Part shown: positions 5,660 to 39,101 of the stretch, piece after piece
Numbering within the stretch: the first letter of the stretch is position 1
How the letters are laid out: every line of letters starts with the position of its first letter
Origin: Planctomycetota bacterium
Lineage (GTDB): Bacteria > Planctomycetota > UBA8108 > UBA1146
DNA: 64,000 bases
NCBI GenBank assembly: GCA_032128395.1
Contig: JAQBGV010000193.1
Location: forward strand, 7,764-71,763
Direction of reading: 5' to 3'
Notes under the pieces: model-generated
What the model was told of the DNA's origin: nothing
Seen by the model: only the letters and a program-made list of their open reading frames with translations
Database searches by the model: none
Program-made: the position numbers and the translations under genes

Positions 5660-8223
5660 TCAGGGACAGGATGGATAGAACGCGCACCCCACTCCACCGG
5701 CCACCGCTCCGCAACTCGGGAACGGCGGGGCGGGAGGAGGTCCGCCCGCGAAGAGATAACCGAGAAGGTTGATCGGGTCGCCGATCGTCAGAGCACCATC
5801 GACACTGATGTCCCCCGATTCGAGGCAGTCGAGCGGTGACCCGAGGAAGATGTACGACAGGATGTGGACCACGTCCCCGATGTCCGGACTCCCCGTCCCG
5901 TTCGGGTCTCCGCGGCGGAACGAAGTCCCGGTCGGCATCGGCGACTCGACGACCCGGAGCGCGTTCGCGTACTTCCCGCGCCAGGGGTTTCCCGAATCTC
6001 CGTCGTAGGTGCAGACGAGTCGTACCTCTCCGTCGCTTCCCGGATCGACCTCGATAAATCGAGCGACGTACCCCGCAGGGTTGTCGGATGGGAGCCGGGT
6101 GGAAGGATCCCCGGGGCCCGAAAAGAGAGCACCTCCCGAACCGGGTTCCGGGTTGTCGATGCCGACCGAGCTCGCATTCAAGAATCCGATCGAATCCTCG
6201 AGGGTGACGAGCACCGCGCGGTCCCATCCGTAGTAGTTGCGATGTCCGTAGAGGACGAGGTCGTAGCGCGACGAGGGATCGAGCCCGGTCAGGATCAAGC
6301 GGAGGTCTCCCGTCGGCGACGGGGAGGCGATGTACGAAATGCAGCCGTGGGCGGTGACGTGCCCGTCGAACACATCCCAAGCGTCGACCCCCGGGAGCGG
6401 CCCTCCGCTCAAGTCGAGGGCGTGGTCGCCTCCATCGTACGTCCCTCCTTCGACGGTCAGAGTCACGCCGGTGGCGAGTCCGGAGGCTCGGTCGACGAGC
6501 TCGCCGCTCGAAGGAAATCCACTCCCGCCGATCGGCGAGGTGATCTTGGTGATGTTCTCATCCCGCTGACCCAGCCGCCATGCGAGGTCGTTGAACGCGA
6601 TGAAGCCCCCAGCGCTCGCGGGGAGGAACTGCGCGGTCACCGGCGCATCGGCGCTCAAGGTCACCATCGTCGTCGACATGATTCCGGTCACCGCGCCGGC
6701 CCAGCCGTCGAAGATCCACCCTGGCGCGGGCTCGGCGGTGAGGGTGACCGTCTGGCCGTCCTCGTAGAGCGGTCGGTCGGGGGTCCGACGGATACGACCG
6801 CCCCCCTCGATCGTCTCGACGATGCGGTGGATCGCCGCCCCCTTCGAGATCACGAAGCGATCGGTGACGCTGCTGTCGATGCGCACGTTCTCGAGCCAGA
6901 GCAGGTCGCCGTCGACCCGGAGCAGACAGGAGCCGTGTTCGATCTCATCGAACGCCATCGCCGGATGCCCCCCGTTGCCCCCCGTCTCTCGGCCACCGTG
7001 ACCGCCGACGACGTACACCGCGCCGTCCGCGACGAGCCCCGGGGTCTTGGTGTATGCGCCGTCCCCGTTCGGATCGCCGTCTCCCGAGTCGAAGACGTGC
7101 CCGTCTGCGATCAGGACCGGCGTCGCGGGGGTCGCGAAATCAGGGGAAGTCCCATATCCGTGCGCACCGTCGATCAGCATCGAACGTTCGTAGCCGTGCG
7201 AATGCCCCGACAGGACCAAGTCGACCCCGCCCGCTTCCAGGATCGGAACGACCTCTTCGCGAGCGAGTACCAATCTTCCCCCGGAGTCGGTGCCGTCGTT
7301 CGAGTCGTGCGACCCCTTCGTGTACGGCGGGTGGTGGAAGAACACGACGACCCAGTCGGCGAGGGTGCTCGCAAGGTCTAGGGCGAGCCAGTCGAGCATG
7401 TTCGACGGGGGCTCCAGATCCCCCTCGGCGGTGTCGATCGAGATGAAGTGCACGTTCTGGTGGTCGAAGGAGTAGTACGCGCGCGTCCCCGACGCCACCC
7501 CGCCGAGCTCCCCCGCGGTCGGCAGCACGAATGCTTCGAAGTACGGCCCGAACTGCGTCGCCGAAGTGGAACTGCTCGCATCGTGGTTCCCCATGGTCGG
7601 CCAGATCGGGCTCCGCCGGAGGATCTCTCCGTAAACGTCGAAGAAATACTCGGTGTACTGCTGATCGGTGCCATTCGAATACGCGATGTCTCCGACGTGG
7701 ATGAACAGGTCGGGGCCGGCACCCTCGGTCGCGGCGAACATCGCGTCGCGGACCGCGAGTTGATTGTCGTTGCCGTCTCCGGAGTCACCGACGATCCAGG
7801 CGCTGAACGGAAAGGCGGTTCCCGCGGGGAGCGGAGTGGTGAAGCGGTACGCCGATGTCCCCCCCCCGATGACGCCGCCGGTCGCGGTACCGAATTGGTA
7901 GTAGTACGTGGTCCCGGGGGTGAGGCCGGTCAGTGTCACGGTGTGATCTCGCTCGCTCAAGTTCGACGGGGGGACCGCGACCGTGCCGGTCACCAGGGTC
8001 GTCAGCGATGCGGGGTCGGTCCCGTACTCGACGATCGGGTCGGTCGGGAAAGTGTCGTCGACCCGCCAACGAACGAGCACCGAGTCGGGGGAGAGCTGCA
8101 GGAGGTAGGCGTCGCGGATCAGCGGCGGGCCCGCGTCGACCGGCGTGATCCCGACGAAGACGATGGAGAGGAGCGCGGCCGTGAGCCCCGAACGAATCGC
8201 GTGGATCCTGCGGTGTGTGTTCA
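5660..8223 (-). CDS. secreted purple-acid-phosphatase-like metallophosphoesterase with C-terminal dockerin-like module
   Basis: Signal peptide MNTHRRIHAIRSGLTAALLSIVFVGITPVDA. Metallophosphatase motifs GDSGDG, GDIAYSNG, GNHD and FHHPPYTKGSHDS. C-terminus has DIGDVVHILSYIF...DISVDGALTIGDPINLLGYLFAGGPPPAPPFPSCG. ATG 8223-8221 overlaps the upstream stop (ATGA). The track N-terminus (to 9250) is Arg-rich read-through. Confidence 0.8.
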
Positions 8224-9285
8224 TCCCGAACGGACCTCCCCCCCGCGCGCATCGGTCGGGGTGTCGGCGGGGGGAGCTCCTCGCGACTCGATCTCCTCGA
8301 GAAGCTCCGCGACCCCGGCGAATTCGGGGGCGAGGCGTTTCGCCTCCTTGGCATCGCGGCGGGCACCTTCGGGATCCCCGAGGTCGAGCAAGATCCTCCC
8401 CCGGGTGACGAGATGCATCGGGATCCGGCGACGGGCGAGGACGCGATCCGCTTCGGCGAGCGCGGCTCGGAGTTCGATCAGCCGTCGCGGCTCGTTCCCG
8501 GCCGCTTCGTAGACTTCGGCCCGCCGGACGAGCCAGCTCGTTCGAACCGCAGCCCGGGAGAGCTCGGCGTCGATGAGCGAAAGCGCGGTCTCGTACTCGC
8601 CGCGGGCGATCTCGACGGAGATCCACGCGTCCTTGACGAGCAGTGAGTCTCCGAGGGTTTCGAGCGCGTTCTGATAGCCGCGGGCGGCCTGTTCGAGTGC
8701 ACCCTGCTCGGAGAGCAGTGCCCCGCAGCGCAGTGCTCGATCGACACTCGGGGCGAGAGTGAACGAGCGGGTCACGTCGGCGATCGCAGCTGCGAGCTCG
8801 CCCGCGCGAACGTGGAGCGTTGCGCGTGCGTCGAGCACGGCGGCAGCGCGGTCGGGAACCGCCTCGATGACTCGGTCGAGCAGAGGGGCCGCCTCGTCGT
8901 CGCGCTCGAGATCGACGTAGCAGAGCGCTCGCTCCAGGGGCTCCTCCCACGGGGCGAATGGGGACGGTCCCCCATCGGCGACGATCGTCACCGCGAGATC
9001 GCGTGCACGGTCGCAGTCGGCGAGAGCTTCGGCGGGTTTCTTGTGAAAGCGGAGGAGTCGCGCGCGGAGCAGATGGAGATCCGGCCGCGGCGTGGCCGCG
9101 GACTCGATCTCGGCGGTGACCCGCTGGATGTCGACGTGGGCACCGTCGTGGGCCGCCAGGGGGCCCGTGGTGACCCCGAACAATATCGAGAGGAGCATCA
9201 CTGGCACCGAACTTCGCAGATGCCGTTCGAGGACGGGTCGATGAACGCAAAGCCGCGATTTCATCGGCGCGACAACTCCGGTCAA
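8221..9285 (-). CDS. TPR-repeat protein with N-terminal signal-anchor
   Basis: TPR-like Ala/Leu-rich helical repeats and a hydrophobic stretch VMLLSILFGVTTGPLAA. TTG start at 9285 with a GAGGAG SD 5 nt upstream. The stop overlaps the phosphatase ATG. Confidence 0.55.
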   Translation of the reverse strand: MTGVVAPMKSRLCVHRPVLERHLRSSVPVMLLSILFGVTTGPLAAHDGAHVDIQRVTAEIESAATPRPDLHLLRARLLRFHKKPAEALADCDRARDLAVTIVADGGPSPFAPWEEPLERALCYVDLERDDEAAPLLDRVIEAVPDRAAAVLDARATLHVRAGELAAAIADVTRSFTLAPSVDRALRCGALLSEQGALEQAARGYQNALETLGDSLLVKDAWISVEIARGEYETALSLIDAELSRAAVRTSWLVRRAEVYEAAGNEPRRLIELRAALAEADRVLARRRIPMHLVTRGRILLDLGDPEGARRDAKEAKRLAPEFAGVAELLEEIESRGAPPADTPTDARGGEVRSG

Positions 9286-9636
9286 GTCGGCTCCTCAGTG
9301 ATCCGGACCCACCGAATCGCGTTTGCAGGTCACGACCCAGTCTCGTCTACGGGCATAAACCGCCCGCGAGCAACGAGTTAAACTGCCTCTATGGTACCTC
9401 CACGGGGGACCTGCGACACCGAGCATCGCCGGCAATTCCACAAACTTGCTGGGATGCCGGACTTAGCAGTCCGTAGAAAGTGTGCTTCCGATCCGAAAGA
9501 TCGACTCCTCAGACGGGCGGTGACCCCCGCGCACCGCGAGTACACCCACCCCCTTCGTTCCCGTAGGGTCAGGGGTCATGAAGAAGAGGGCGGGCACGCA
9601 CTGCGAGCCGACCCCGACGGATCTTCGGTTTGCCGC

Positions 9637-9665: not shown

Positions 9666-9720
9666 CACCGAGAGGCGGGCAGCTCCGCTCGCCGCCGGGC
9701 GGGAAGGGGAGACCTCGAAA

Positions 9721-10245
9721 GTGATACAGGTCTATCCCTGGTCAGAGGAAGCGCTCGCGTCGCGCCCGAGCCTCGTCTCCGCCGCGCGACGCGTGGTCCG
9801 AGACGCGACCGAGGCGGAGGACGTCGCCGACGAGGCGATCGCCCGGCTCGCCGCCGCCACCGCGGCCGGGGAGTCGATCGAATCCGTCGCGGGGTGGCTC
9901 CACCGAGCGGCGCTCCGGATCTCGGTCGATCGAGCGCGCGCCTGGGTTCGCCGGCGGCAGGAAGGTTGGCGTCACGAGGCGGCGCGCCGACCCACTGCAC
10001 CGGACCCCGAGCGAGTGCTCGAAGAGGTCGAGACGCGGGAACGACTGTGGCTCGCGGTGCTCGAGCTCCCCGACCGGCAGCGCGACGCGGTCGTGCTCCG
10101 GCAGATGGACGGGCGGAGCTTCCGCGAGATCGCGGACCTGCTGGAAATTTCCGAAGCGACCGCTCGGGGTCACGTGCATGCGGCGCGAGCGACGCTCCGG
10201 CGTACGCTGTGGGACCTCGATCCGACGGAAGGGCGAGGACGATGA
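9721..10245 (+). CDS. ECF (group 4) RNA polymerase sigma factor
   Basis: Sigma-70 region 2 (EAIARLAAA...WLHRAALRISVDRARAW) and region 4 HTH (LELPDRQRDAVVLRQMDGRSFREIADLLEISEATARGHVHAARATLRR). GTG start at 9721 after GGGGAG. The stop overlaps the next ATG. Confidence 0.8.
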   Translation: MIQVYPWSEEALASRPSLVSAARRVVRDATEAEDVADEAIARLAAATAAGESIESVAGWLHRAALRISVDRARAWVRRRQEGWRHEAARRPTAPDPERVLEEVETRERLWLAVLELPDRQRDAVVLRQMDGRSFREIADLLEISEATARGHVHAARATLRRTLWDLDPTEGRGR

Positions 10246-16496: not shown

Positions 16497-19400
16497 GTGA
16501 GGTGGGGTGTGACGGTGCTCAATGCCGCGCGTGGGGCATTCATCGCGGCGGTCCTCGGAGCACTGCTCCTGACCTCCCCCGCGCAGGCCTTTACCGGTTG
16601 TGTGAACTCTGCCACCGCCGGCCATTACACCGTCGACTTCCTCGGCGTCGCCTACAACCCAGACGGCACGAGCACCTGGAACTACACCGTCACGTGGGAC
16701 GGTATCCCCCCTTCGCTCAGCCACTTCACGCTGAAGCTCTGCCATCAGGCCGAAGTGATCTCATCCGTTCCCGCGGGAGCGGAGGTCGGGTACGACGGAT
16801 CGACCGGTCTCTACGGGATCAAGTGGGACGACGTCACCATCGAAACCCCGGGCGTTCCGGTCCCGTTCACCTTCACGCTCGATCAGCCCTACGCGATCTC
16901 AGGGACGATCTTCGCGGCGAAGGCGGGGCCGTACCCGAACTTCGGCTGGATCTGCGGGCCGAGCAAGAAGTGCAAACTCGCACTCGTGCCCCCCAGCGAC
17001 CTCGTCTGCACCGTCCTCGATCCGTGCACCTGCGAAACACTGCTGACCTGGACGAACATCAGCGTGGTCGACCTGATCAACGTGCGGGTCGACGGGGTTC
17101 TGGTTGCAACTCTCCCCGGCGACACGACCTCCACCATCATCACCGTGAAGCCCGGGACCCACGCGATCGAGGTCACCGGGGTCATCGATCCTGCCGGCGA
17201 CGGCTACCAGCACGGGGGCGGTTCATACCCCTTTGGTGGCGGCGGGTATGGGGATGATGACGACGACGACGATGACGACGACGACGACGACGATGACGAC
17301 GACGACGACGACGGCAACCCGGGAGACAACGACCAGGAGACCGACCCCGCGATCTGCGAGGTCATCTGCCCCGACCACACCCCGGTCCCCCCCAAGGATC
17401 TCGTCTGCACTCCCGACCCGCTCGACTGCTCGGTCACGGTCTCCTGGGTGAACTCGCGCGACTACACCGAGATCATCGTCTTCCTCGATGGCCTCCCCTT
17501 CGAAACACTGCCGGGGAGTGCGACGAGCACGATGATCGGCGGGCCGCTGATCGGTTCGCACGGGGTCTGCCTGGCGGGCACGACGACGTGCGGCGACCCG
17601 TTCGCCGAGGTCTGCTGCCAGTTTTCCTGCGATGACCCCACCCCACCCCCGGTGACCGACCTCGTCTGTGAGGTCGCGGACATCTGCACCTGCGAGACCG
17701 AGGTCTCGTGGACGAACGGGGCGGCGAACTACGATTCGATCGAGGTGTTCGTCGACGGGAACTCCGCCGCGATCCTTCCAGGGTCGGCGACCTCGACGGT
17801 CGTCCTTCTCGGCGGGCCGGGAGAACACGTGATCTGCGTCGTCGCGACCCGGAACGAGTTCACGAGTGAGTTCGCCTGCTGCGGCGCGAATTGCCCGGCC
17901 ATCCCCGACGATCCTCCTTTCGCTCTGACCTGCGACGCGCCGCCGGCGCCGAATTGCGAGGCGAGCGCGATCTGGCTCGGGGGCGGCGTGTACTCCCAGA
18001 TCGAGGTTCTTCTCGACGGGGTCGTGGCCCAGGTTCTCCCCGGCGATACGTTCGAGACCACCGTGGCGATCCCCACCTCGGGGCCGCACGAACTCTGCCT
18101 GCGGGCGACGACGATCTGCGGGGTCGTGCTTCCGGACGTCTGCTGCACGGTCGAGTGCATCGGACCCCCCGACCCGATCACCGATCTGACCTGCACACTC
18201 GTCGACCTGTGCAAGTGTCTCTTCACGCTCGACTGGACCAACGGGAACCCCGACTACGACACAATCCAGGTCCTGATCGACGGGGTGCTCCACGAACGGA
18301 TCCCGGGCGACACGACCTCGCTCGCGCTGACGCTCCCCACCCCTGGCCTCCACGAAATTTGCCTGGTCCCGGTTCGCGCCGCGCTGCCCGGTCCCGAGAC
18401 GTGCTGCTCGGTGGACTGCCCCGACGTGCCCCCGGCGATGCCGGAGAATCTGGTCTGCACTTTTGACCCTCTGACGTGCATCTTCACGGTGATGTGGTCG
18501 AACCCGGTCCCGTACTCATCGCTCGAGATCTTCGTCGACGGCGTCGCCGCCGGGACCGCTCCGGGGGGCGCGTCCTCCTTCTCGATCCCGTTCCCGCTCA
18601 TCGGCCAGCACGAGATCTGCGTGGAGGGAACGACGATCTGCGAAGAGGTGACCCCCGCCGCGTGCTGTTCGGTCGAGTGCCAGATCCAGCCGCCCCTGCC
18701 GGTGCTCGATCTGGCGTGTGGGGTGGTCGATCCGTGCACCTGCATCGTCGCCGTCGCGTGGACGAACCAGGAGGCGAACTACGTCTCCGTCGAGGTCACC
18801 GTCGACGGAGTTCCATTCGCTTCCTTGGCCGGTACTGCGACCAACCTCGCGGTGACGCTCCCGGGTCCGGGAAACCACGTGATCTGCGTCTTCCCGATCC
18901 GCAACGGGGTCTCCGGCGATCAGGTTTGCTGCAAGGCGAACTGCCCGATCACCGACCCGATCCCCCCCGTGCTGCTCGAGTGTGTCGTCGACAAGCCGTC
19001 CGCGACCGCCACGATCAGTTGGCTGCCATCCGCGCTCTACTCCCAGGTCGAAGTGTTCCTGAACGGCGTGCTGGTCGAGACAGCGCCGGGGGACGCGACT
19101 TCGGCGTCGGTAGTTCTGACGCTGCCCGGCGTGAACACTCTCTCGCTGATCGCGACCACCGTCTGCGGTGAGGTGACCCCCGCGGTGAGTTGTGAGGTCA
19201 CCTCGGGGCTGACCCCGGTGATGATCAACGGACTCAGCTGCTCTCTCGTGTCCCAGTGCACCTGTGACGCGACGGCGACGTGGACCAACGGCGAGCTGTA
19301 CGACTCGATCATCATCCAAGTCAACGGGATCGTGGTCGCCACGCTCCCCGGAGATGCCGTCACGGCAGACTTCACTCTGGGAGCCCCCGGCACGCGCGAG

Positions 19401-20537
19401 GTCTGCGTCGTCCCGGTCATCAACTTGGTCGAGGGAGATGCCGTCTGCTGCATGGTGACCTGCGATGATGTACCGCTGACCCCACCGAACGGGATCACCT
19501 GCGACGTCGGCCCCGCACCCGACTGCGAAACCACCGTGACCTGGCTCAACCACTCGCAGTACGAGTCGATCCAAGTCACGCTCGACGGGGTGGTCATCAG
19601 CACCCAGCCGGGAGACGAGACGCAGACGACCGTGCTGCTCCCCGGCCCGGGTGCGCACCAGATTTGCCTCGTCGCGACGACGATCTGCGCCGACGTGCTC
19701 CCTCCGGTCTGCTGCACCGCGATGTGCGACTTCCCACCGGCGCCGCCGGAGAACGTCGTCTGCACCCTCGACGATCCGTGCCTCTGCACCGGAACGGTCA
19801 CCTGGACGAACGCGGACGCCGACTACGACGAGCTGATCGTCGAGGTCGACGGTGTGGTGATCGCGACCCTCCCCGGCAGCGCGACGAGCGCGCCGGTCGG
19901 ACCGGTCGCCCCCGGCCCCCACAACGTCTGCGTGACCGCGGTGCGGACGGGGCTCAGCTCCCCCGAAGTGTGCTGCGCCCTCGACTGTCCCGGCCCGCCG
20001 GCGCCGATCCCACCGAGCGGCCTGGTGTGTGGGGTCATCGACAATGGAACCTGCACGGTGAGCCTCGACTGGACGAACTCGATGCCGTACGGCGCCATCC
20101 AGATCCTCGCGGACGGGGTCGTCTGGGCCGATCTCGCCGGAAGTGCGACCCACTACGAGGCACCGCTCCCCGGTGGCATCACGAGTTCCGAGCTCTGCCT
20201 CGTCGCGACGACCGAGTGCGGCGACGCCGCCAACCAGGTCTGTTGTACGGTGGAGTGCCAGACCCAGTTCGTCCGAGGGGACTGCAACGTCGACGGAATC
20301 GTGAACATCGCCGACGGCGTCTACATCATGCGATTCCTCTTCCAGGGTTTCACGCCGAGCATCTGCCTCGATGCCTGCGACCACAACAGCGACGGCTTGG
20401 TCGACATCTCCGACGTGGTGTTCATCCTCCACTACATCTTCACCAGTGGTCCGCCCCCGCTCGCACCGTTCCCCGACTGCGGGGTCGACGTGGATGAAGT
20501 CCCGGGGTGCAACACGTATCCGTTCTGCTCGAACTGA
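16497..20537 (+). CDS. giant secreted protein: ~12 tandem Cys-rich ~88-aa modules, poly-Asp tract, C-terminal dockerin-like module
   Basis: Signal peptide ...VLNAARGAFIAAVLGALLLTSPAQA; the start is ambiguous among GTG 16497, 16509 and 16515. The repeating module is DLVCT.DP..C...V.W.N...Y..I.V..DG.....LPG.ATS......PG.HEIC...TT.CG.....CC.V.C, about 264 nt per unit over 16998-20270. D20 occurs at 17253-17312. C-terminus is GDCNVDGIVNIADGVYIMRFLF...DHNSDGLVDISDVVFILHYIFTSGPPPLAPFPDCG...C..YPFC. Confidence 0.8.
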   Translation: MRWGVTVLNAARGAFIAAVLGALLLTSPAQAFTGCVNSATAGHYTVDFLGVAYNPDGTSTWNYTVTWDGIPPSLSHFTLKLCHQAEVISSVPAGAEVGYDGSTGLYGIKWDDVTIETPGVPVPFTFTLDQPYAISGTIFAAKAGPYPNFGWICGPSKKCKLALVPPSDLVCTVLDPCTCETLLTWTNISVVDLINVRVDGVLVATLPGDTTSTIITVKPGTHAIEVTGVIDPAGDGYQHGGGSYPFGGGGYGDDDDDDDDDDDDDDDDDDDDGNPGDNDQETDPAICEVICPDHTPVPPKDLVCTPDPLDCSVTVSWVNSRDYTEIIVFLDGLPFETLPGSATSTMIGGPLIGSHGVCLAGTTTCGDPFAEVCCQFSCDDPTPPPVTDLVCEVADICTCETEVSWTNGAANYDSIEVFVDGNSAAILPGSATSTVVLLGGPGEHVICVVATRNEFTSEFACCGANCPAIPDDPPFALTCDAPPAPNCEASAIWLGGGVYSQIEVLLDGVVAQVLPGDTFETTVAIPTSGPHELCLRATTICGVVLPDVCCTVECIGPPDPITDLTCTLVDLCKCLFTLDWTNGNPDYDTIQVLIDGVLHERIPGDTTSLALTLPTPGLHEICLVPVRAALPGPETCCSVDCPDVPPAMPENLVCTFDPLTCIFTVMWSNPVPYSSLEIFVDGVAAGTAPGGASSFSIPFPLIGQHEICVEGTTICEEVTPAACCSVECQIQPPLPVLDLACGVVDPCTCIVAVAWTNQEANYVSVEVTVDGVPFASLAGTATNLAVTLPGPGNHVICVFPIRNGVSGDQVCCKANCPITDPIPPVLLECVVDKPSATATISWLPSALYSQVEVFLNGVLVETAPGDATSASVVLTLPGVNTLSLIATTVCGEVTPAVSCEVTSGLTPVMINGLSCSLVSQCTCDATATWTNGELYDSIIIQVNGIVVATLPGDAVTADFTLGAPGTREVCVVPVINLVEGDAVCCMVTCDDVPLTPPNGITCDVGPAPDCETTVTWLNHSQYESIQVTLDGVVISTQPGDETQTTVLLPGPGAHQICLVATTICADVLPPVCCTAMCDFPPAPPENVVCTLDDPCLCTGTVTWTNADADYDELIVEVDGVVIATLPGSATSAPVGPVAPGPHNVCVTAVRTGLSSPEVCCALDCPGPPAPIPPSGLVCGVIDNGTCTVSLDWTNSMPYGAIQILADGVVWADLAGSATHYEAPLPGGITSSELCLVATTECGDAANQVCCTVECQTQFVRGDCNVDGIVNIADGVYIMRFLFQGFTPSICLDACDHNSDGLVDISDVVFILHYIFTSGPPPLAPFPDCGVDVDEVPGCNTYPFCSN
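17253..17312 (+). repeat. (GAY)20 trinucleotide repeat encoding poly-Asp
   Basis: gatgatgacgacgacgacgatgacgacgac... gives 20 consecutive Asp codons inside the giant protein gene. Confidence 0.9.
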
Positions 20538-23952: not shown

Positions 23953-24525
23953 ATGGCCAACGATCCCGATCGACGACTCTTCGAGGCGGCGGCGCGGGGG
24001 GATCCTGCGGCGCTCGAAGCTCTCTGGCGGCGCGAGCGCCGGCGGGTCGCGGCGGTGCTCTTGGCACATCGCCCCCGCGAGGAAGACCTGGAGGACCTCT
24101 TGCAGGAGGTCGGGATCATTTTCGTCGAGCGACTGCGCGAAGTGCGGGAACCCGATCGATTCCGCGCATGGCTGCGCATCGTCGCGCTGAATGTCGCGCG
24201 GGGAGCCGGGCGGCGAGTGAAGATCCAACGCGACCGGCGGCGCGGTCTCGAGGCTGCGATCGAGGTCCACGACCCGACCGGGGAGCGGAGCCTCGAACGC
24301 TCGGAAGCGCGCGACGAGCTGCGACAGGTCATCGCCTGGATCCGGGGGCTCTCGCCGAGCCTCGCCGAGCCGCTGCTCCTCCGCGCGGTGTGGGGAATGG
24401 CCCAGCGCGAGATCGCCGAGTGGCTCGGAGTCCCGGAAACGACGGTCGAGACCCGACTGGCCCGAGCACGCCGGGTACTCCGGCAAAGGATCGAGGAGGC
24501 CGATCGCCTCCGCCGCGCCGAGTGA
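23953..24525 (+). CDS. ECF RNA polymerase sigma factor (second copy)
   Basis: Region 2 (DLLQEVGIIFVERLREVREPDRFRAWLRIVALNVA) and region 4 (LSPSLAEPLLLRAVWGMAQREIAEWLGVPETTVETRLARARRVLRQ). Confidence 0.8.
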   Translation: MANDPDRRLFEAAARGDPAALEALWRRERRRVAAVLLAHRPREEDLEDLLQEVGIIFVERLREVREPDRFRAWLRIVALNVARGAGRRVKIQRDRRRGLEAAIEVHDPTGERSLERSEARDELRQVIAWIRGLSPSLAEPLLLRAVWGMAQREIAEWLGVPETTVETRLARARRVLRQRIEEADRLRRAE

Positions 24526-25142: not shown

Positions 25143-25211
25143 ATCGATGAGCGATCGGTGCCCGCGCTCCGGTCGCTCTCCGTGAGACTCTCCGTGGAAA
25201 GGAACCCTGCG

Positions 25212-27023
25212 ATGCGCCATCGCTTCCCCCTCTCACTCGTCGCCATCTCCCTCCTCCTCGTCGGCGCTACGGTCGCACAGGATGCGACACCGGCGGCCGC
25301 GCCCGCCGACCCGTTGCTCCGAGCCCTCCTCGGGGACTCCCCGGAGCAGGACAGCACGGCGCCCCGGCGGGCGACAGCTCCGATCCCGCCCGTGGCCGAT
25401 CCGCTGCTGCTCCCCCCCGCACCTCCGACGCCGGATGAGCCCCATGGACTGTGGCTCCTCAGCGATGGTCCCGCGACCGCTCCCACCATCCCGGACGAGC
25501 CCGCCCCTCCCCCGACCGGCGGTTGGCTCCTGACGCAGGACGGCACGGGGCGAGCGGTGTACGGGCAAGGCGGGACGACCGGGAATGGATTCAGTTTCTA
25601 CGACGGCATTGCGGACGCGCGCGACTACACCACCTGGAACACGAACTCGAACCAGGTCGATCTGCGCGTCAGCGTCGAGGGGGGTGGCATCACCGTTCAT
25701 CGCAATGGACGGCCCGTCCCCGATGATCAAATCGAACAGCACGGCTCGACTCTCCGCGTCCACGACGGAACCGGTCGTCTTCTCGTCACCATCGACGTTG
25801 CGGGCGATGGTCGGGTGACGATCCCCCCAGGGTGGAGTTTCCGCGGACCCGCGAACTGGGCCACCCAGGCCCAGAGCAAGAACGTGATCGGAATTCGCAC
25901 CGGATCGATCGAGGCAGCCCTCGCGCAGCACCTCGGTCTGGGGGACGGCGAGGGGATCCTGATCAGCGAAGCAGTCCCGGGTCATCCTGCCGCGGCGGCG
26001 GGACTGCGGGCGCACGACGTGATCGTCGCGATCGACGGACGACGCCCCGCTACCCTCGACCTCCTCAAGAACACCCTCCAGACGAAGGAAGCCGGAGCCC
26101 ACATCACGCTCACCGTGGTGCGCGCCGGGAACACCCTCGAGATTCGCTCCGAGATCACGCAGATCTCCGCTCCGGTCGGCGCGAACACGCTCCCGAGCGG
26201 CGCCTATGCGCTCTCACTCGGGGACTACGCGGGAGTGCTCACCGAAGAGGGCAACGTCCCCGCTCCAACCCTGCTCTGGCGGCGCAGTGGGAACGTGTTG
26301 CTCGGTTCGGAGGACGGGACGGCGGTGCTTCCGCCCTCGGCGAGAACGCTAGGATCGGCCCCGGCGCTCGGCCTCACCGGCGGCGGCGGCGCGGGAAGAG
26401 TGGTGGCCGTCCCCCGGCTGCCCGGGGGTTTGGCGGCGGGTCAGGTCGTGTCACCTGGGGCGAGCAACAATTTCGGCGGTCAGGTGGTCGGTCCGGATGG
26501 GAATCCGATCGCCGGGGCCCTGGTCGCTCCTGGCGCCGGCGGCGTGGTGGATCTCAGCCGGGGGCGGATCGCAGCTCCGGTGATCGGCGACGGATTCCGG
26601 CGCGCCGGGCCCGGAGGGGATCGCCTCGAGACGATCGAGAAGCGTCTCGAGAAACTCGAAGAGCTGCTGGAGAAGTTGCTCGAGCAGAAGAGCAAGGATC
26701 GGCAGCCTCGGGCGGAGGCGCCACGGCGCACCCAGAACATCGACGGCCGAGTCGTTGCGGTGATCGACGGTCTCGTGATCCTCTCGGTCGGTTCCGACGA
26801 CGGAGTTGCGAGCGGAGACGAATTCGTGGTCTATCGAGGTGAGCAGTTCATCGGGAAGGTACGGGTCAGCTCCGTGACTTCCGAGCAATCCGAAGCAACC
26901 GTTCTCTTCACACACAACAACTTGGGGATCGAACAGGGACAGAGCGCAACCACGCGGTTGAAGAGCCTGACCACCCCGTGGGAGGGGGACGACACGGTCG
27001 GCGCCACGGGCACCGGCGGCTAG
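25212..27023 (+). CDS. secreted PDZ-domain protein with coiled-coil segment
   Basis: Signal peptide MRHRFPLSLVAISLLLVGATVAQDA. PDZ-like region GIRTGSIEAALAQHLGLGDGEGILISEAVPGHPAAAAGLRAHDVIVAIDGRRP...LTVVRAGNTLEI. Coiled coil IEKRLEKLEELLEKLLEQK. Confidence 0.6.
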   Translation: MRHRFPLSLVAISLLLVGATVAQDATPAAAPADPLLRALLGDSPEQDSTAPRRATAPIPPVADPLLLPPAPPTPDEPHGLWLLSDGPATAPTIPDEPAPPPTGGWLLTQDGTGRAVYGQGGTTGNGFSFYDGIADARDYTTWNTNSNQVDLRVSVEGGGITVHRNGRPVPDDQIEQHGSTLRVHDGTGRLLVTIDVAGDGRVTIPPGWSFRGPANWATQAQSKNVIGIRTGSIEAALAQHLGLGDGEGILISEAVPGHPAAAAGLRAHDVIVAIDGRRPATLDLLKNTLQTKEAGAHITLTVVRAGNTLEIRSEITQISAPVGANTLPSGAYALSLGDYAGVLTEEGNVPAPTLLWRRSGNVLLGSEDGTAVLPPSARTLGSAPALGLTGGGGAGRVVAVPRLPGGLAAGQVVSPGASNNFGGQVVGPDGNPIAGALVAPGAGGVVDLSRGRIAAPVIGDGFRRAGPGGDRLETIEKRLEKLEELLEKLLEQKSKDRQPRAEAPRRTQNIDGRVVAVIDGLVILSVGSDDGVASGDEFVVYRGEQFIGKVRVSSVTSEQSEATVLFTHNNLGIEQGQSATTRLKSLTTPWEGDDTVGATGTGG

Positions 27024-27174: not shown

Positions 27175-27334
27175 CAAGCCTCGACGGACCCTTGCCTCCG
27201 GGGCCCCTGCCAAGGAGAATCGGGTGCCCCAGCACAGCCCCGGAATCGGTACAGCCCCGGAAACGCACGATCCGCCCCCTGCGGTGCGGAGCTTCGGTGC
27301 ACCGGTTCTCCGGGAGGGCGGAAGGTGGCTCCCA

Positions 27335-28225
27335 GTGTCTCGTCGAATTCTCCCGATCCTCTCCATCGTCGCTCTGGTCGCCTCCTCCGCCTTCGCGGGC
27401 GAAGCCAACGACACTTTTTCGCGGGGGGACGCGAACCGGGATGGCGCACTGAACATCGCGGACGCCGTCTTCGTGCTCGACTATCTCTTCGGCGGAGCCG
27501 GCGCCGTTCTCCCCTGTCAGGACGCCGCCGATGCGAACGACGACGGGGCGATCGACATCGCGGACCCGATCCTCATGCTCGGCTATCTGTTCGTGCCGCC
27601 GCTGACGCCGCTCGTCGCACCGTTCCCGAACCCCGGTTCCGACCCGACCGCCGACGGCCTCACCTGCGCACCGATCGACTGCGCGAACGCCGCGGAGGTC
27701 GATGCTCTGCTCACGCTGCTCATCGGAACCTACCCTCTTCCCGGTGCGGTTCCACCGCAGACGATCACACAGTCCGGAGTGACGGTCGAGATCTTCGCCG
27801 CGGACGCGGTGGTGACCGTCGACAGCGTCAGCTACGACCCGATCACGGATACGTTCTCCGCATCGGGCACCGCAGGCGCCCCGGCGGTACCGACGACGAT
27901 CACCGCGTTCCTGATCAACGTCAGCTGCGATATCGCGGTGACCGGCAACTGGAGCATGACCGGTTCGCTCGACACCATCCCGATCAGCGCAGAGGCGTCC
28001 GAGGTCGTCGGCGTGACCCCGGGATCGGTGACATCATCGGTGACGAATACGAACATCGACTTTTCGGCGTGCGGGGGGATCGGCGTGATTCTTTCGATCG
28101 TCTCCGGTCTCTTCGATGCCGCGATCCAGGACGCGATCGATCAGATCGAGGTCCAGCTCGAGGCACAGATCACACAGGCCGTCGACGCAGTGATCGGGAC
28201 GACGCCGCTAATCGTCTGCGAGTAA
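27335..28225 (+). CDS. secreted protein with N-terminal dockerin-like module and Ser/Thr/Val-rich C-terminal domain
   Basis: GTG 27335 (SD GGAAGG). Signal peptide SRRILPILSIVALVASSAFA. Dockerin-like pair GDANRDGALNIADAVFVLDYLF / DANDDGAIDIADPILMLGYLF followed by PPLTPLVAPFPNPG. Confidence 0.6.
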   Translation: MSRRILPILSIVALVASSAFAGEANDTFSRGDANRDGALNIADAVFVLDYLFGGAGAVLPCQDAADANDDGAIDIADPILMLGYLFVPPLTPLVAPFPNPGSDPTADGLTCAPIDCANAAEVDALLTLLIGTYPLPGAVPPQTITQSGVTVEIFAADAVVTVDSVSYDPITDTFSASGTAGAPAVPTTITAFLINVSCDIAVTGNWSMTGSLDTIPISAEASEVVGVTPGSVTSSVTNTNIDFSACGGIGVILSIVSGLFDAAIQDAIDQIEVQLEAQITQAVDAVIGTTPLIVCE

Positions 28226-33093: not shown

Positions 33094-33184
33094 GCGAGCC
33101 TCCGACCTGGTGGTGCCGATGCGCGCCATGGTACTGTAGCCCTGTCGGGGAACACCAGTCAGAGCGGGCGGAGACGGCGAGATC

Positions 33185-34247: not shown

Positions 34248-35126
34248 CTACTCCGCAATGCCGTGGCGCACCCGGAAGCCGGTCTCGTAGAAGCCGTAGC
34301 CGGGCGAGAATCGTTGGCGTCGCGCCGCGCGCAGATCGGCGGGCCCGCCGACCCACGAGCCTCCGCGGAAGCTCTGGTAGTACCGCCGCCGCCAACTCGC
34401 GCGTTCGGACTCCGGGCTCACCGGCGCCGCTTCGTTGAAGCTCTCGTAACTGGGAGTCCAGTCCCCGAGGGTGAGTTCCCAGACGTTGCCGAGCACATCG
34501 CAGAGCCCGAATCCGTTCGGCGCCCACTCCCCCACCGGATGCGTCCGACCGTCCGAGTTCTCCCGATACCACGCGATCGTGCCGAGCGGTCCGTAGCGCG
34601 GTCCCGGGTTCCCCGCGCGGCACGCCCATTCCCATTCGACCTCGGTCGGCAGCGTGAGGCCGGTCTTCTCGAGGAAGGACCGGATCTGCGGGACCGTGAT
34701 GTTCTCCGCCGGGTGGTCGGCTCCCTCGGTATCGAAGGGGTGCTCGCCCATCGTGCGGACCCACTGCGCCTGCGTCACCTCGAAACGCCCGAGGTAGAAC
34801 GGCTCCGTCACCTGCGCCGTGTGTGCAGGTTGTTCCTCCGGCCGCGCGTCTTCCTCCCCCTCCGGTGCTCCGCGCTGAAACTCGCCGGGGGGGATCAGGA
34901 TCAACTCGATGCCGGTCGCGCGGTCGCGGACGTGCCACGGCAGCCCGGTCGCGATGATTCGTGCGCGCAGCTCTGCATCGCCGACGATCGCCTTCTCGGG
35001 AACTGCACCGATCGTCTCGGCCCAGGTCAGTGGTGGGATCGAGTCCAATTCGGTATCCGACACGACCGGCGCCGCACACCCACAAGAGAGCGCCGCGATG
35101 CTCAGCAACCACCGGGAGTGGTGCAT
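34248..35126 (-). CDS. FGE/SUMF1-domain (formylglycine-generating-enzyme-like) lipoprotein
   Basis: MHHSRWLLSIAALSCGC lipobox. FGE-sulfatase domain signatures (GEWAPNGFGLCDVLGNVWEL...YRVRGGSW). Confidence 0.7.
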   Translation of the reverse strand: MHHSRWLLSIAALSCGCAAPVVSDTELDSIPPLTWAETIGAVPEKAIVGDAELRARIIATGLPWHVRDRATGIELILIPPGEFQRGAPEGEEDARPEEQPAHTAQVTEPFYLGRFEVTQAQWVRTMGEHPFDTEGADHPAENITVPQIRSFLEKTGLTLPTEVEWEWACRAGNPGPRYGPLGTIAWYRENSDGRTHPVGEWAPNGFGLCDVLGNVWELTLGDWTPSYESFNEAAPVSPESERASWRRRYYQSFRGGSWVGGPADLRAARRQRFSPGYGFYETGFRVRHGIAE

Positions 35127-35134
35127 TCCGCTCC

Positions 35135-38100
35135 TCACACCCCGAGCAGATCGAGCGCGCTCTCGAGGCCATCGATCTGCGTCGCTTTCGGCGGCCGCCC
35201 GCCGATCTCCCCGCCGGTGAGCTCGACCACCTTCCAACCGCGCCCTCGGAGCGCCTGGATGATCGCGGCGCGATCTCCGGCGAAGATCAGCCAGTTGTCC
35301 TCGGAATCGAACTTCTTCACCCCCCAGCTCCCGAGGAGGAGCCGCAGCCGCTGGAGCCGGAACAGCGTCTCGGTCTCGGCGGGGAGCTTGCCGAAGCGGT
35401 CGACCAGGTCGGCCGCAATCTCGTCGAGTTCGCTCGCGGTGAGCGCGGTCGCGATCGCCCGGTACGCACGCAACCTCCCGCGGGTGTCCCCGATGTATTC
35501 CTCGGGGATGCGGGTGTGTCCTTCGAGGCCGATCTCGATGTCGGGGGGTTCTTGCCATGCGGTGCCGCGCATGTCGGCGACCGCGCGCTCGAGCAGGCGA
35601 CAGTAGAGGTCGTAGCCGACCGCCGCGATGTGCCCTGACTGCTCCTTGCCGAGGATGTTCCCCGCGCCGCGGATCTCGAGGTCGCGCATTGCGATCTGGA
35701 AGCCGCTGCCGAGCGCGGTCAGTTCTTCGAGCGCCTGCAGTCGGTGACGCGCCTCTTGCTTGATCGGACGGTCGTCGGGGAGAAGCAGGAAGCAGTACGC
35801 CTTGTGGGTGCCGCGCCCGACCCGCCCGCGCAGCTGGTGCAGCTCCGCGAGACCGAACCGGTCTGCGCGATCGATCACCATGGTGTTCGCGCTCGGGATG
35901 TCGAGGCCGCTCTCGATGATCGTCGTCGAGACGAGCACATCGACTTCCTTGGCGAGGAATCGATTCATCCGCGCCTCGAGCTCGTGCTCGTTCATCTGCC
36001 CGTGCACCTCGATCATCCGCGCCTCCGGAACCAACCTCTCGAGCGCCTCGCGCTTCACCCGCAGCGACTTCACCCGGTTGTGGAGGTAGAAGACCTGCCC
36101 GTCGCGGTTGAGTTCACGCAGCATGATCTGCCGAAAGCGTTCCTCATCGAAGTGACACACCTCGGTGTGGACCGGATTTCGCCCCTGGGGTGGATCGGCG
36201 AGGCTCGAAATGTCTTTCACGCCGACGAGCGACATGTGCAGCGTCCGCGGGATCGGCGTCGCGGTGAGGGTCAGCACGTCGGCGAGGCGTCGCAGATGCT
36301 TGAGCCGCTCCTTGTGCGCCACCCCGAAGCGCTGCTCCTCGTCGATGATGATCAGCCCGAGGTTCTGGAAGTGCACGTCGGCGGAGAGGAGTCGGTGGGT
36401 GCCGATCAGGATGTCGATTTCGCCCGCGGCGGCGCGTTTCAGGATATCGGTCTGTTCGCGCCGGCTGCGCAGGCGGCTGATCGCCTCGACCCGCACTGGA
36501 AACTCCGCCATGCGATCGCGAAACGTCAATCGGTGCTGCTCGGCGAGAATCGTCGTCGGGACCAGGATCGCCACCTGTCTCCCCGCGCGCGTCGATTTGA
36601 ACGCGGCGCGCATCGCGAGCTCGGTCTTGCCGAAGCCGACGTCTCCGCAGATCAGGCGATCCATCGGCTTCGGCGACTCCATGTCGCGGCGGATCGCCTC
36701 CATGCTCGTCAGCTGATCGTCGGTCTCCTGGAAGGGGAACGCCGCTTCGAATTCGTGCTGCCAGTGGTCATCGGTGGGGAACGCCATCCCCTCCCGCTCG
36801 GTGCGCAGGGCCTGCATCTCGAGGAGATCCGCGGCGAGGTCGTGCAGCCCCTCCGCGACCTTCGCCTTCTTCTTGCCCCAAGCGGTCGATCCGACCCGGT
36901 CGAGCCGGACGTGACGACCCTTGCTCCCGACGAACTTCTGGACCAGGTCGATCCGTTCGACCGGGACGAGGATCTGGACCCCTTCGGAGTACTCGAGGAT
37001 GAGGAAGTCTCCCGGACGGCGACCTTGGGTCTGGTGTCGGATTCCTCGGAAGCGCGCGATGCCGTGAGAAACGTGGACGACGTGCGCTCCCTCCTCGAGC
37101 TCGAGGAAGCTGTCGACCGCCCGCCCCTCCGCGCGTTGTTTCGCGCGCCTGGACATCGCGCGGCTGCGGCCGAGCGCGGCGGAGCCGGAGAGAAAGATTC
37201 CCCCGGTCGGTTCGAGCCACCGAAAACCGCGCGAGAGATCTCCGAGGGTCGGGCGTGCTCCGGAGCCGACCCCCGCCCCCGCGTCGGCGAGCACTTCGAG
37301 AAAGCGCTCGACCTCCGCCTCCTGGCGGAAGAAGACCCGCAGCTCGACCCCCTTCCGCGTTTCCGCCACGATCGCGGGGACCGTGTTCTCGAGCGAACCG
37401 ATGAACGCTTCGGTGGAGCCGGCGGGGAGCAGAACCGCGTTGCGCCCCTTCTCCGGTGAGAGGGGATCGAGGGCGAGATGGGTGAACTTCCCCGATCGCG
37501 CCCAGAACTCATCGCCGATCGATCGCTCCTGCTTCGGCGCCCACTGTCCGATCAGAGTCCGACTGCGCTCGTCGAGCTGGCCCGGGTTCGGGAGGACGAG
37601 AACCAGGTCTTCGGGAAGGCCGTCGAAGAGCAGCAGCTCCTCCCCGGTGAATCCACGGATGAAGTAGTCGCGTTTCGGGAGGAGTGTGAGGACGAGCATC
37701 GGCACCTCGTCCCCCGAGCGTTGGTCTTTTGTGGAGACGGAACGGATGGTGTCGATCTCGTTGCCGAAGAAGTCGACCCGATAGGGGTGGGAGCCCTCTC
37801 GTGGGTAGATGTCGAAGATCCCACCTCGAACCGAGAAGTCCCCGGGGCGCGCGACCTGTGGGAAGCGCCGATACCCCGCGTCGACGAGGGCGCGGGCGAG
37901 GGTCTCGGGGGGGAACCGGTCTCCGGTGCGGAGCAGGATCCGTCGGTCGTCGGTGGCGTCCGGTCGCGAGATCGGCTGCAAGATCGCCTGCACCGGCGCG
38001 ACCGCGGCCCGGACCGTACCGGCGCGCAACCCTTCCGAGCACTCGGTCCGCTCGCGGAAGATGTCGGGATCGGGCTCCGATTCCGCCTCGAAGAGAGACT

Positions 38101-38395
38101 CCCACGGGGGAAAGACGTGCACCGGTTCATCGGTGAAGGTCGACCAGTCGCGACGGAGACGTTCCGCCTCATCGAGGCTCGCGGTCACCGCCAGGATCGG
38201 CCGCGAGGTGGTCTCGGTCAGCCCCGCGAGCAAGAAGCCACTGACGCCCTCTCCCGCCCGCCCGACCAGGACCTCGCCGCCGCGGTCGAGGCGCCGGCGG
38301 ATCTCGGCGATCGACTTGGACTCTCGGAAGATCTTGCTCGCGAGCCGCTCCGCGTCGAGTGGCGGGTGCGTACCGGCGGGGTCGGCTGCGGACAT
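35135..38395 (-). CDS. mfd: transcription-repair coupling factor Mfd
   Basis: Full-length Mfd: UvrB-homology N-terminus, RecG-like helicase motifs (LICGDVGFGKTELAMRAAF, DEEQRFGV, HQLRGRVGR) and a TRG/CarD region. Start at MSAADPAG (ATG 38395). Confidence 0.9.
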   Translation of the reverse strand: MSAADPAGTHPPLDAERLASKIFRESKSIAEIRRRLDRGGEVLVGRAGEGVSGFLLAGLTETTSRPILAVTASLDEAERLRRDWSTFTDEPVHVFPPWESLFEAESEPDPDIFRERTECSEGLRAGTVRAAVAPVQAILQPISRPDATDDRRILLRTGDRFPPETLARALVDAGYRRFPQVARPGDFSVRGGIFDIYPREGSHPYRVDFFGNEIDTIRSVSTKDQRSGDEVPMLVLTLLPKRDYFIRGFTGEELLLFDGLPEDLVLVLPNPGQLDERSRTLIGQWAPKQERSIGDEFWARSGKFTHLALDPLSPEKGRNAVLLPAGSTEAFIGSLENTVPAIVAETRKGVELRVFFRQEAEVERFLEVLADAGAGVGSGARPTLGDLSRGFRWLEPTGGIFLSGSAALGRSRAMSRRAKQRAEGRAVDSFLELEEGAHVVHVSHGIARFRGIRHQTQGRRPGDFLILEYSEGVQILVPVERIDLVQKFVGSKGRHVRLDRVGSTAWGKKKAKVAEGLHDLAADLLEMQALRTEREGMAFPTDDHWQHEFEAAFPFQETDDQLTSMEAIRRDMESPKPMDRLICGDVGFGKTELAMRAAFKSTRAGRQVAILVPTTILAEQHRLTFRDRMAEFPVRVEAISRLRSRREQTDILKRAAAGEIDILIGTHRLLSADVHFQNLGLIIIDEEQRFGVAHKERLKHLRRLADVLTLTATPIPRTLHMSLVGVKDISSLADPPQGRNPVHTEVCHFDEERFRQIMLRELNRDGQVFYLHNRVKSLRVKREALERLVPEARMIEVHGQMNEHELEARMNRFLAKEVDVLVSTTIIESGLDIPSANTMVIDRADRFGLAELHQLRGRVGRGTHKAYCFLLLPDDRPIKQEARHRLQALEELTALGSGFQIAMRDLEIRGAGNILGKEQSGHIAAVGYDLYCRLLERAVADMRGTAWQEPPDIEIGLEGHTRIPEEYIGDTRGRLRAYRAIATALTASELDEIAADLVDRFGKLPAETETLFRLQRLRLLLGSWGVKKFDSEDNWLIFAGDRAAIIQALRGRGWKVVELTGGEIGGRPPKATQIDGLESALDLLGV

Positions 38396-38564
38396 CGGAG
38401 CGCTCCAGGGAAAGAGGGGGCGCAGAGTGTACACCGCCGGCGAAAGTCGTCCCATCGGGTGCGCGGAAGCCGGTCTGACGGATGAAAAGGAGGGGCCCCC
38501 CGGGTGGGGGCCCCTCGAAGATTGGCCGCGGGAACCGCGTGGGTCACGCGGTCGGGTCCCGCTC

Positions 38565-39101
38565 TCACCTCCGAGTGGGCTCTCGGGATCCGAAGAGGAT
38601 CTCGGCGAGGACGACCAAGTCGGTGATCGTGATCCGGCCGTCACCGTCTACGTCCGCGGCCTCGTACCCCCCGCCCGGTCGCGCGACCCCTGCGAAGACT
38701 CGCTGGAGGAGGTTGAAGTCTTCCTTGTCGACGTCCCCGTCCCCATCGACATCTCCCTGCAGCTTCCGCTCAGGGGTCGAGGGAGCGGGCGAGGCGTTGG
38801 AGCGTTGCGCCGGTCCGATACTCACCTGGCGCTCCGCGAGAGCGGCGAGCATCACGGCGTCGGCCTTGTCGATCGCACCGTTCTGATCGACATCGAGCTG
38901 CGCCCGCGTGTACCGGTGCGGCGCCCCGCCGAGGATGCTCCGCAGGATCGCGACGTCATCGAAGTCGTAGATCCCGTTGCCGTTCAGGTCTCCCGGAGCC
39001 AGCGCCCTGCTGGCCGCCACGTCTGCCGCGATCGCGCTCCCCGCGATTCCACTCGTCACCAAGAGAACCAGAGCCGTGAGCACTGCCTTGTGCGTACGCA
39101 T
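38565..39101 (-). CDS. small secreted protein of four dockerin/EF-hand-like Ca-binding repeats
   Basis: Signal peptide MRTHKAVLTALVLLVTSGIAGSAIA. Four repeats: DLNGNGIYDFDDVAIL, DVDQNGAIDKADAVMLAAL, DVDGDGDVDKEDFNLLQRV and DVDGDGRITITDLVVLAEIL. SD AGGAGG. Confidence 0.6.
   Translation of the reverse strand: MRTHKAVLTALVLLVTSGIAGSAIAADVAASRALAPGDLNGNGIYDFDDVAILRSILGGAPHRYTRAQLDVDQNGAIDKADAVMLAALAERQVSIGPAQRSNASPAPSTPERKLQGDVDGDGDVDKEDFNLLQRVFAGVARPGGGYEAADVDGDGRITITDLVVLAEILFGSREPTRR

Follow-up and report, generated by a model that had tools for sequence, protein, structure and literature searches.

Type I dockerins (PF00404; PDB 1OHZ/2CCL, 2MTE, 4FL4 and 2Y3N) are the closest described relatives of a module found here in a 64,000-nucleotide stretch of Planctomycetota DNA (contig JAQBGV010000193.1, assembly GCA_032128395.1; the whole stretch is referred to below as the window). 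The module has the two ~22-residue Ca2+ loop–helix segments of these domains at the same spacing, and relatives of its carriers in the window share with type I dockerins a mostly C-terminal placement on secreted enzymes and the presence of cohesins in the same genomes. The Ca-bound fold of known dockerins is stabilized by an intramolecular clasp, in which residues −3 to −1 relative to the conserved Gly contact a C-terminal Pro or aromatic residue (Slutzki et al. 2013, PMC3821032). In Clostridium perfringens glycoside hydrolases (GH84C cohesin-FN3, PDB 2W1N; 2OZN, cited in PMC3821032), cohesin and dockerin domains likewise sit on enzymes and not on a separate scaffoldin, with fibronectin type III (FN3) domains alongside. 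Dockerins outside cellulosomes are common in genomes, and their function is largely untried. For freshwater Planctomycetes, a "planctosome" has been hypothesized from genomes only (Andrei et al. 2019, PMC6461901), and a similar proposal, likewise from genomes, has been made for Cloacimonadota (PMC8542988).

In the window, four proteins were considered: a metallophosphatase (W1), a giant repeat protein (W2), a protein with an N-terminal module (W3) and a double dockerin (W4). We consider it moderately probable that W1–W3 carry a distinct Cys-stapled dockerin subfamily and are clients of a non-cellulosomal cohesin–dockerin assembly. This reading rests on homology, predicted fold, conservation, terminal placement, Cys co-variation and the linkage of module and cohesin in relatives. 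The relevant genes and modules, with scores on a hidden Markov model (HMM) of the module, are as follows.

W1 gene, 5660..8224, minus strand: secreted purple-acid-phosphatase-type metallophosphatase, 854 aa (translation, Pfam)
W1 module, 5663..5926, minus strand: 4-Cys type, Cys pattern CCCC; 91 bits
W2 gene, ~16497..20537, plus strand: ~1345-aa secreted protein; start uncertain (GTG candidates at 16497–16515)
W2 module, 20262..20534, plus strand: 6-Cys type with all three co-varying pairs; 114 bits
W3 gene, 27335..28225, plus strand: 296-aa secreted protein (translation)
W3 module, 27410..27691, plus strand: no "CG" Cys, Cys pattern C.CC; 127 bits
W4 gene, 38565..39101, minus strand: 178-aa secreted protein with two generic dockerin domains, 38847–39032 and 38574–38795

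The planctosome resembles the present case in having non-cellulosomal cohesin and dockerin proteins with peptidase cargo, and M10 and S8 peptidases carry the module in relatives of the window proteins. The planctosome model concerns one family (Nemodlikiaceae) and an LTD-anchored scaffold, whereas the window shows neither an LTD nor a cohesin protein. The relatives differ from the C. perfringens enzymes in phylum and in that a single enzyme often bears a cohesin and a Cys-stapled dockerin side by side. In the accessible portion of the searchable literature on Planctomycetota dockerins, no Cys-bearing or disulfide-stapled dockerin, Cys-stapled tail, FxRGD start, family of this scale, or dockerin–cohesin–dockerin or enzyme–cohesin–dockerin architecture was found, a result that covers the searchable literature only and does not itself prove novelty.

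Dockerin identity of the module

Two tandem ~22-residue units, each composed of a 12-residue Ca2+ loop (D1, N/D3, D/N5, D12) and a helix, can be read directly in W1–W4, and translation of the open reading frames (ORFs) together with a six-frame motif scan confirmed the dockerin-like repeats that the original prediction had reported in these proteins. The module HMM was built from 72 unrelated metagenome proteins and no window sequences, and was run against the 578 six-frame ORFs of the window at a threshold of E ≤ 10. Scores were 127 bits for W3, 114 for W2 and 91 for W1, at E values between 9e-39 and 9e-28, and each match extends over profile positions 13–119, which comprise the module and its tail. 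These matches are far beyond chance, and apart from W1–W4 no ORF in the window reached the threshold. The two W4 domains gave 19 and 33 bits over positions 16–89 only, with no tail and no Cys. Pfam Dockerin_1 scored W4 at 62.5 bits and W3 at 21.2 bits, under the gathering cut-off of 22.9, and gave no match to W1 or W2 at E ≤ 0.1. The module, which spans ~90 residues, is common to W1, W2 and W3; W4 is a generic double Pfam dockerin of a different subfamily, and the predicted sharing among four proteins is thereby reduced to three. NCBIfam has no model for the module, offers no family for any of W1–W4 and gave no sorting-domain match. The "GC-type dockerin" model of NCBI has a different sequence pattern, and no match to such a model reached E ≤ 0.1.

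When the PDB was searched with the family profile, type I dockerins of solved structure aligned over the two segments, at a best E of 2.3e-8. Each of the top 12 matches is a chain that contains a dockerin, and most of the remainder are dockerins too, with a few EF-hand proteins low down; the tail of the module has no PDB match in this search. An AlphaFold2 model of the W2 module, computed from 75 aligned sequences, has a predicted local distance difference test score (pLDDT) of 90.1 and a predicted TM-score (pTM) of 0.81. A fold search with this model returned dockerins only, at a superposition of ~1.9 Å, and the predicted structure has the dockerin fold. In agreement with the type I identity proposed originally, the module is a true dockerin and not a generic EF-hand or thrombospondin-type-3 (TSP3) repeat.

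Among 380 full modules from other organisms, the F-x-R-G-D start is nearly invariant (F 90%, R 98%, G 96%, D 98%), and the Ca-ligand positions of both loops are 81–99% conserved (D1 98%, N3 87%, D5 90%, D12 99%). The modules of W1–W3 would be expected to bind Ca2+. At loop positions 10–11 (columns 39–40 and 72–73), the consensus is Ile followed by Ser or Ala. The "RGD" of the start was considered as an integrin-type motif and rejected: its G-D corresponds to G0 and D1 of the first Ca loop and its R to clasp position −1.

Tail, clasp and cysteine pairs

In contrast to type I dockerins, the module combines the F-x-R-G-D start with a conserved 30-residue tail and up to three predicted disulfides. 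Aligned clostridial dockerins have no Cys at the Cys positions of this tail, and the module differs further from them in its diderm Planctomycetota hosts and in cargo that is not cellulolytic. The consensus of this tail over the 380 modules is P(97%)-[FY]-P-x-x-G(93%)-x-D(92%)-P(75%)-T(78%)-x-D(83%)-x-L-x-C(89%). A Cys in the inter-repeat linker, missing from the original list of features, is conserved in 96% of modules, and the "CG" Cys and the last Cys are each present in only 37%.

A tail of the form PPPxAPFPxCG had been predicted for three of the window proteins. This holds for two: P-F-P-x-C-G is present only in W1 (GGPPPAPPFPSCG) and W2 (SGPPPLAPFPDCG). W3 reads VPPLTPLVAPFPNPG (P-F-P-N-P-G), in which Pro replaces the "CG" Cys and the downstream ...DPTADGLTC...IDC is kept, and its tail is otherwise canonical (...PFPNPGSDPTADGLTC...). 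The tail segment G-x-D-P-T-x-D is degenerate in W1. As predicted, W1 and W2 both end as ...C..YP.C, the former in ...GCAFYPSCP and the latter in ...GCNTYPFCSN.

Because positions −3 to −1 and the C-terminal Pro of the module match the clasp sites described for dockerins (PMC3821032), F-x-R and P-[FY]-P probably form an intramolecular clasp by analogy. The clasp places are taken by F(−3)/R(−1) on one side and P-[FY]-P on the other, and the residues concerned are conserved (F(−3) 90%, R(−1) 98%, P92 97%). Unlike the known clasps, which involve no covalent bond, this one lies in a longer region that, to judge from the co-variation of its cysteines, would be covalently stapled. The cysteines co-occur in three pairs of alignment columns, with the following counts.

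Columns 58–107: both Cys in 340 modules, neither in 12, one only in 31
Columns 96–113: both Cys in 133 modules, neither in 226, one only in 24
Columns 31–62: both Cys in 26 modules, neither in 345, one only in 12

This co-occurrence is the pattern expected of three disulfides, which are proposed on that basis. The first would join the linker Cys to the Cys of L-x-C and act as a nearly universal staple. The second, between the "CG" Cys and the last Cys, would be an optional staple internal to the tail, present in W1 and W2, and the third a rare bridge between the two Ca loops, found in W2. Accordingly placed cysteines give W2 all three pairs, W1 two, and W3 the first pair plus a lone Cys. In the numbering of the W2 module, the predicted bonds are C35–C83, C73–C89 and C8–C39.

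Family distribution, cohesin linkage and alternative explanations

An exhaustive protein search of 1.84 billion cluster representatives (50% identity) returned 68,945 module representatives at E ≤ 1e-3, 35,119 at E ≤ 1e-10 and 4,042 at E ≤ 1e-30; generic dockerins are expected in the weakest E band only, unless they are multi-copy. A complete module with its tail is present, once or more, in 135 of the 150 top-scoring proteins. The module is C-terminal in 124 of these 135 and directly follows the signal peptide in 104, and within the best 150 it is also found internally and in 2–7 copies per protein. A genome scan with one genome per species gave at least 540 confirmed stretches, and the best 80, from 33 genomes and covering a few tens of kb per genome, were analysed as loci. 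Among the stretches listed, the source locus is absent and the best match has 61% identity. The 33 genomes are almost all metagenome-assembled genomes (MAGs) of Planctomycetota, with up to 11 loci per genome. Bins labelled Woesearchaeota, Proteobacteria and Omnitrophota (L054, L015, L029 and L055) hold a module at 51–56% identity to that of W3, which could be due to mis-binning or lateral spread.

In these 80 loci, 152 ORFs carry the module. Of 148 full modules, 124 (84%) have their end no more than 15 residues from the stop codon, and most of the others follow a signal peptide. The original prediction was staked on the tail and its placement being conserved outside its four proteins, and the HMM scan found both conserved far beyond the window. 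Pfam Dockerin_1 detects 23 of 78 module ORFs at E ≤ 1e-4. The domains that accompany the module include TIG, NHL and beta-helix, alongside cargo typical of dockerin clients: FG-GAP, LamG, PKD, CotH, M10, S8 and M28 peptidases, endonuclease I and, among the module-bearing ORFs of relatives, two further purple-acid phosphatases. Seven proteins of ~1,000–1,200 aa (P0088, P0091, P0095–P0098 and P0107) contain 8–12 tandem dockerin-like domains without the Cys tail, an architecture that is unexpected for simple clients. The subfamily defined in this way has sharp limits and is very large: its cluster representatives number in the tens of thousands, and Pfam and NCBIfam mostly miss them. Its signature consists of the FxRGD start, the PFP clasp, the GxDPTxDxLxC tail and three co-varying Cys pairs, and it travels with a matching cohesin family; it could improve annotation of the secreted proteome in environmentally abundant Planctomycetota.

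The cohesin family was recognized in the spacers between modules of multi-copy proteins, which are mostly 140–200 residues long and of which 132 of 168 form one homology cluster. A profile of this cluster matched essentially only cohesins in the PDB (best E 2.9e-7), together with two designed Ig-like proteins at E ~0.2–0.3, and 12 of 23 cluster members individually match Pfam Cohesin. In the 80 loci, which were picked by the module alone, 25 of the 26 ORFs that encode a cohesin also encode the module, and a cohesin is present in eight of the nine genomes sampled at three or more loci. With SP for signal peptide, Doc for dockerin and Coh for cohesin, two architectures recur, SP-Doc-Coh-Doc(-Coh-Doc)n and enzyme-(TIG)-Coh-Doc; among the enzymes of the second are an M10 peptidase, a subtilase, a beta-helix protein and a glucose/sorbosone dehydrogenase. 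The co-occurrence is strong genomic evidence that this dockerin class would work with cohesins, and it lends support to the assembly system put forward in the original prediction. An M10 (matrixin) peptidase followed by TIG, cohesin and Cys-stapled dockerin domains occurs in four Planctomycetota MAGs (L016 7913–10246, L027 7282–9228, L030 8303–10267 and L032 5982–8345). In these proteins the linker from cohesin to dockerin measures 1–5 residues, which would permit head-to-tail self-assembly.

In the mechanism proposed for the window proteins, W1–W3 would be exported by Sec, and the module would fold with Ca2+ and oxidize outside the cytoplasm, braced by the clasp and one to three disulfides. 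It would then plug, Ca2+-dependently, into cohesins of other secreted proteins encoded elsewhere in the genome. In this way the phosphatase, the long FN3 rod and the small protein would join a "planctosome"-like multiprotein assembly, presumably extracellular or, as the original prediction had it, at the cell surface. Both the Ca2+-dependent binding of cohesins by the W1–W3 modules and the presence of a cohesin gene in the source genome are inferred. Homologous phosphatases of other phyla bear hydrophobic Arg-rich or MYXO-CTERM-like sorting tags at the position equivalent to the module, an analogy that suggests a surface-retention role for the module of W1.

A broader version of this mechanism is put forward tentatively. 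It envisages a phylum-wide assembly in Planctomycetota in which disulfide-stapled dockerins engage cohesins carried mostly on enzymes (SP-Doc-Coh-Doc(n), enzyme-Coh-Doc), forming head-to-tail, covalently braced surface networks of phosphatases, peptidases, nucleases and FN3 rods, with W1–W3 as clients and W4 as a bivalent linker. If true, this would be a use of cohesin and dockerin distinct from scaffoldin-centred cellulosomes, and the disulfide-braced pair might serve as a robust protein-assembly tag. Taken alone, the window is a modest result: three probable clients and no partner.

Several observations weigh against a cohesin–dockerin assembly in which W1–W3 take part. The evidence consists of sequences and models throughout. 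As the original prediction had noted, the window has no cohesin: none was found in its 64 kb with a cohesin HMM made from 91 inter-module spacers (six-frame ORFs, E ≤ 1) or with Pfam on the ORFs scanned. The ~15 kb recovered past the window ends, as represented in GCA_032124895.1, which encodes identical proteins, likewise contains neither module nor cohesin. Alignment of the cohesin profile to the C-domain of W3 and the N-domain of W2 with hhalign gave probabilities of at most 0.3%. Modules also far outnumber cohesins in the sampled loci (152 ORFs versus 34 domains), and many modules may have another ligand or none. The specificity of C. thermocellum type I dockerins lies in a Ser-Thr recognition pair at loop positions 10–11. 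Its replacement by Ile-Ala/Ser in the present family would imply a different specificity class. In addition, W1–W3 fall below the Pfam Dockerin_1 cut-off; the Ca loops of W1 depart slightly from the pattern (Thr at position 5 in loop 1, Ser at position 3 in loop 2); the pLDDT of the W2 module model falls to 57 over its final 10 residues; and the Fisher tests of Cys co-occurrence (p 1e-10 to 6e-73) ignore relatedness.

Some of these observations would fit a dockerin-fold, Ca2+-binding domain that has no cohesin partner here and instead either recognizes another surface ligand (a glycan, the outer membrane or a protein) or acts as a Ca2+- and disulfide-dependent cap for folding and stability. 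We regard this as unlikely. The missing cohesin in the window and its flanks and the excess of modules over cohesin domains in related loci point to it, as does the lack of a cohesin in the sampled flanks of 17 of the 33 genomes; orphan dockerins outside cellulosomes are also widely reported. However, these flanks amount to just a few tens of kb per genome, and eight of the nine more densely sampled genomes do contain a cohesin. That 25 of 26 cohesin ORFs carry exactly this subfamily is hard to explain without a functional link, and conservation extends to the two helices with which known dockerins contact their cohesins.

The original prediction also allowed for a sorting system, and the C-terminal module with its Cys tail could in principle be a secretion or sorting signal, possibly removed, comparable to PEP-CTERM, MYXO-CTERM or the C-terminal domain of the type IX secretion system (T9SS CTD). 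The module does resemble MYXO-CTERM and PEP-CTERM tags in its position at the extreme C-terminus, which such tags occupy on the homologous secreted phosphatases of other phyla, and the 84% of modules found near the stop codon would suit a signal of this kind. Genes of the type II secretion system (T2SS) class also lie in the window (Secretin_N, 10544–11671; T2SS-E ATPase, 40192–41871). Unlike these tags, the module is a complete, confidently predicted dockerin fold of 90 residues that alternates with cohesins, and it has no transmembrane helix, no hydrophobic C-terminal tag and no basic cluster. Moreover, it directly follows the signal peptide in 104 of the 135 top proteins and in W3, and other proteins have it at internal sites or repeat it as many as seven times. 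A sorting function is therefore very improbable, and this part of the prediction is not upheld. Finally, generic EF-hand or TSP3 repeats unrelated to dockerins are hardly credible, since the weak sub-threshold EF-hand matches of Pfam on W3 and W4 and the few EF-hand proteins low in the PDB search stand against profile and fold searches dominated by dockerins in the correct two-segment register, with EF-hand proteins scoring worse, no TSP3 match on the window proteins, no EF-hand match on W1 or W2, and a module linked to cohesins.

Window proteins and their gene neighbourhoods

The N-termini of W1–W4 resemble Sec signal peptides, as judged by eye. Their genes share no operon and are dispersed among the ordinary genes of a 67%-GC chromosome (ThiC, SulP, Mfd, RNase III, dTDP-sugar genes and T2SS parts). 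W1 consists, in order, of a signal peptide, Pur_ac_phosph_N, Metallophos, an InlB-B-repeat-like region, an unknown domain of ~250 aa and the C-terminal module (Pfam). An identical 854-aa product is on record in GCA_032124895.1 and in Logan runs ERR5010711 and ERR5010721, and the 4-Cys module is kept in W1 orthologues at 53–66% identity. Downstream of W1, the ORF at 4305–5597 was considered as a cohesin carrier and rejected, its sequence looking cytoplasmic.

In W2, a signal peptide and an unknown N-domain precede 12 tandem, Cys-rich, FN3-like repeats of ~84 residues (about 16989–20264, iterative HMM) and the C-terminal module. A model of the repeat has a pLDDT of 95.8 and matches fibronectin type III domains at TM-scores of 0.75–0.8. 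The repeats alternate between two subtypes ("...DxCxCxxxxxWTN..." and "...DPLxCxxxxxWxN...") and each has 5–6 conserved Cys, including a C-C pair near its end. This composition suggests disulfide-rich FN3 domains. Between the first and second repeats, a run of ~18 GAC codons (17259–17313) encodes a poly-Asp tract of ~20 D with flanking Asp, possibly a flexible linker of acidic or Ca-binding character. Spacers of P0108 (Doc-Coh-repeats-Doc-repeats-Doc) match the W2 repeats at E 5e-63, and because this repeat type is common to both, W2 is placed in the same functional neighbourhood as cohesin proteins. The original prediction had called W2 scaffold-like; a role as scaffoldin was rejected, because its repeats are FN3-like and none is a cohesin. 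On the basis of the repeat model, W2 would be better described as a long rod with a terminal dockerin, in cellulosome terms a client or adaptor. More generally, cellulosomes are recognized by a tandem-cohesin scaffoldin, plant-cell-wall carbohydrate-active enzymes and a cellulose-binding module; the window has no cohesin, only FN3 repeats in W2, and a cargo of a phosphatase and unknown domains, and the cargo of relatives is mostly peptidases, nucleases and adhesin-type repeats.

The module of W3 begins six residues past the predicted signal-peptide cleavage site and is followed by a C-domain of ~180 aa without detectable family. Only three homologues were found (P0235–P0237; 295–301 aa, 58–64% identity), and these keep the N-terminal module. 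W4 differs from the double dockerin of C. thermocellum Clo1313_0689 (PDB 8X39/8X3A) in being free-standing, at 178 aa, with no catalytic part, and its role as a bivalent linker is a guess. The exact 178-aa product is recorded elsewhere as a called gene. The longest ORF of Mfd (35135–38644) and the 3′ end of W4 have 80 nt in common (38565–38644), and the Mfd start is probably a later codon.

The following genes flank W1 and W3; ECF stands for extracytoplasmic function.

TPR protein gene, 8221..9198, minus strand: 4-nt overlap with the W1 start codon (Pfam TPR; gene calls in L085)
ECF sigma factor gene, 9721..10245, plus strand: divergent from the TPR–W1 pair (Pfam Sigma70_r2/r4_2/ECF; gene calls in L085)
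Second ECF sigma factor gene, 23953..24525, plus strand: same strand as W3, 2.8 kb upstream (Pfam)
PDZ-domain protein gene, 25158..27023, plus strand: directly upstream of W3 (Pfam)

The TPR gene and W1 probably form one operon. ECF sigma control of the small proteins and enzymes had been predicted as well, and it comes down to adjacency alone for two of the four genes (W1 and W3), W2 and W4 having no neighbouring sigma gene; in relatives, the W3 orthologues (P0237 neighbourhoods, L082–L084) adjoin a Trypsin_2-PDZ-PDZ protease gene and not a sigma factor. The gene of the W3 family always adjoins one for a PDZ-containing (Trypsin_2-PDZ-PDZ, HtrA-like) protease, in an order that differs between the window (25158–28225) and relatives (L082 10001–13059). 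The first ECF gene is followed by a 161-aa ORF and by the gene for a 315-aa protein (10544–11671) with two Secretin_N domains and no secretin C-domain, and these three genes (9721–11671, plus strand) form an apparent operon of unusual pairing.

Between W3 and W4, a cluster at 28372–34153 encodes a dTDP-sugar 3,5-epimerase, two epimerase/dehydratases, a DegT-type aminotransferase, a nucleotidyltransferase and a GT2 glycosyltransferase. This nucleotide-sugar cluster is followed by a gene for an FGE-sulfatase-domain protein (34248–35558). Beyond W4, the minus-strand ORF at 42019–46245 encodes a probably secreted protein of 1408 aa whose sole Pfam match is CarboxypepD_reg and which carries no dockerin module.

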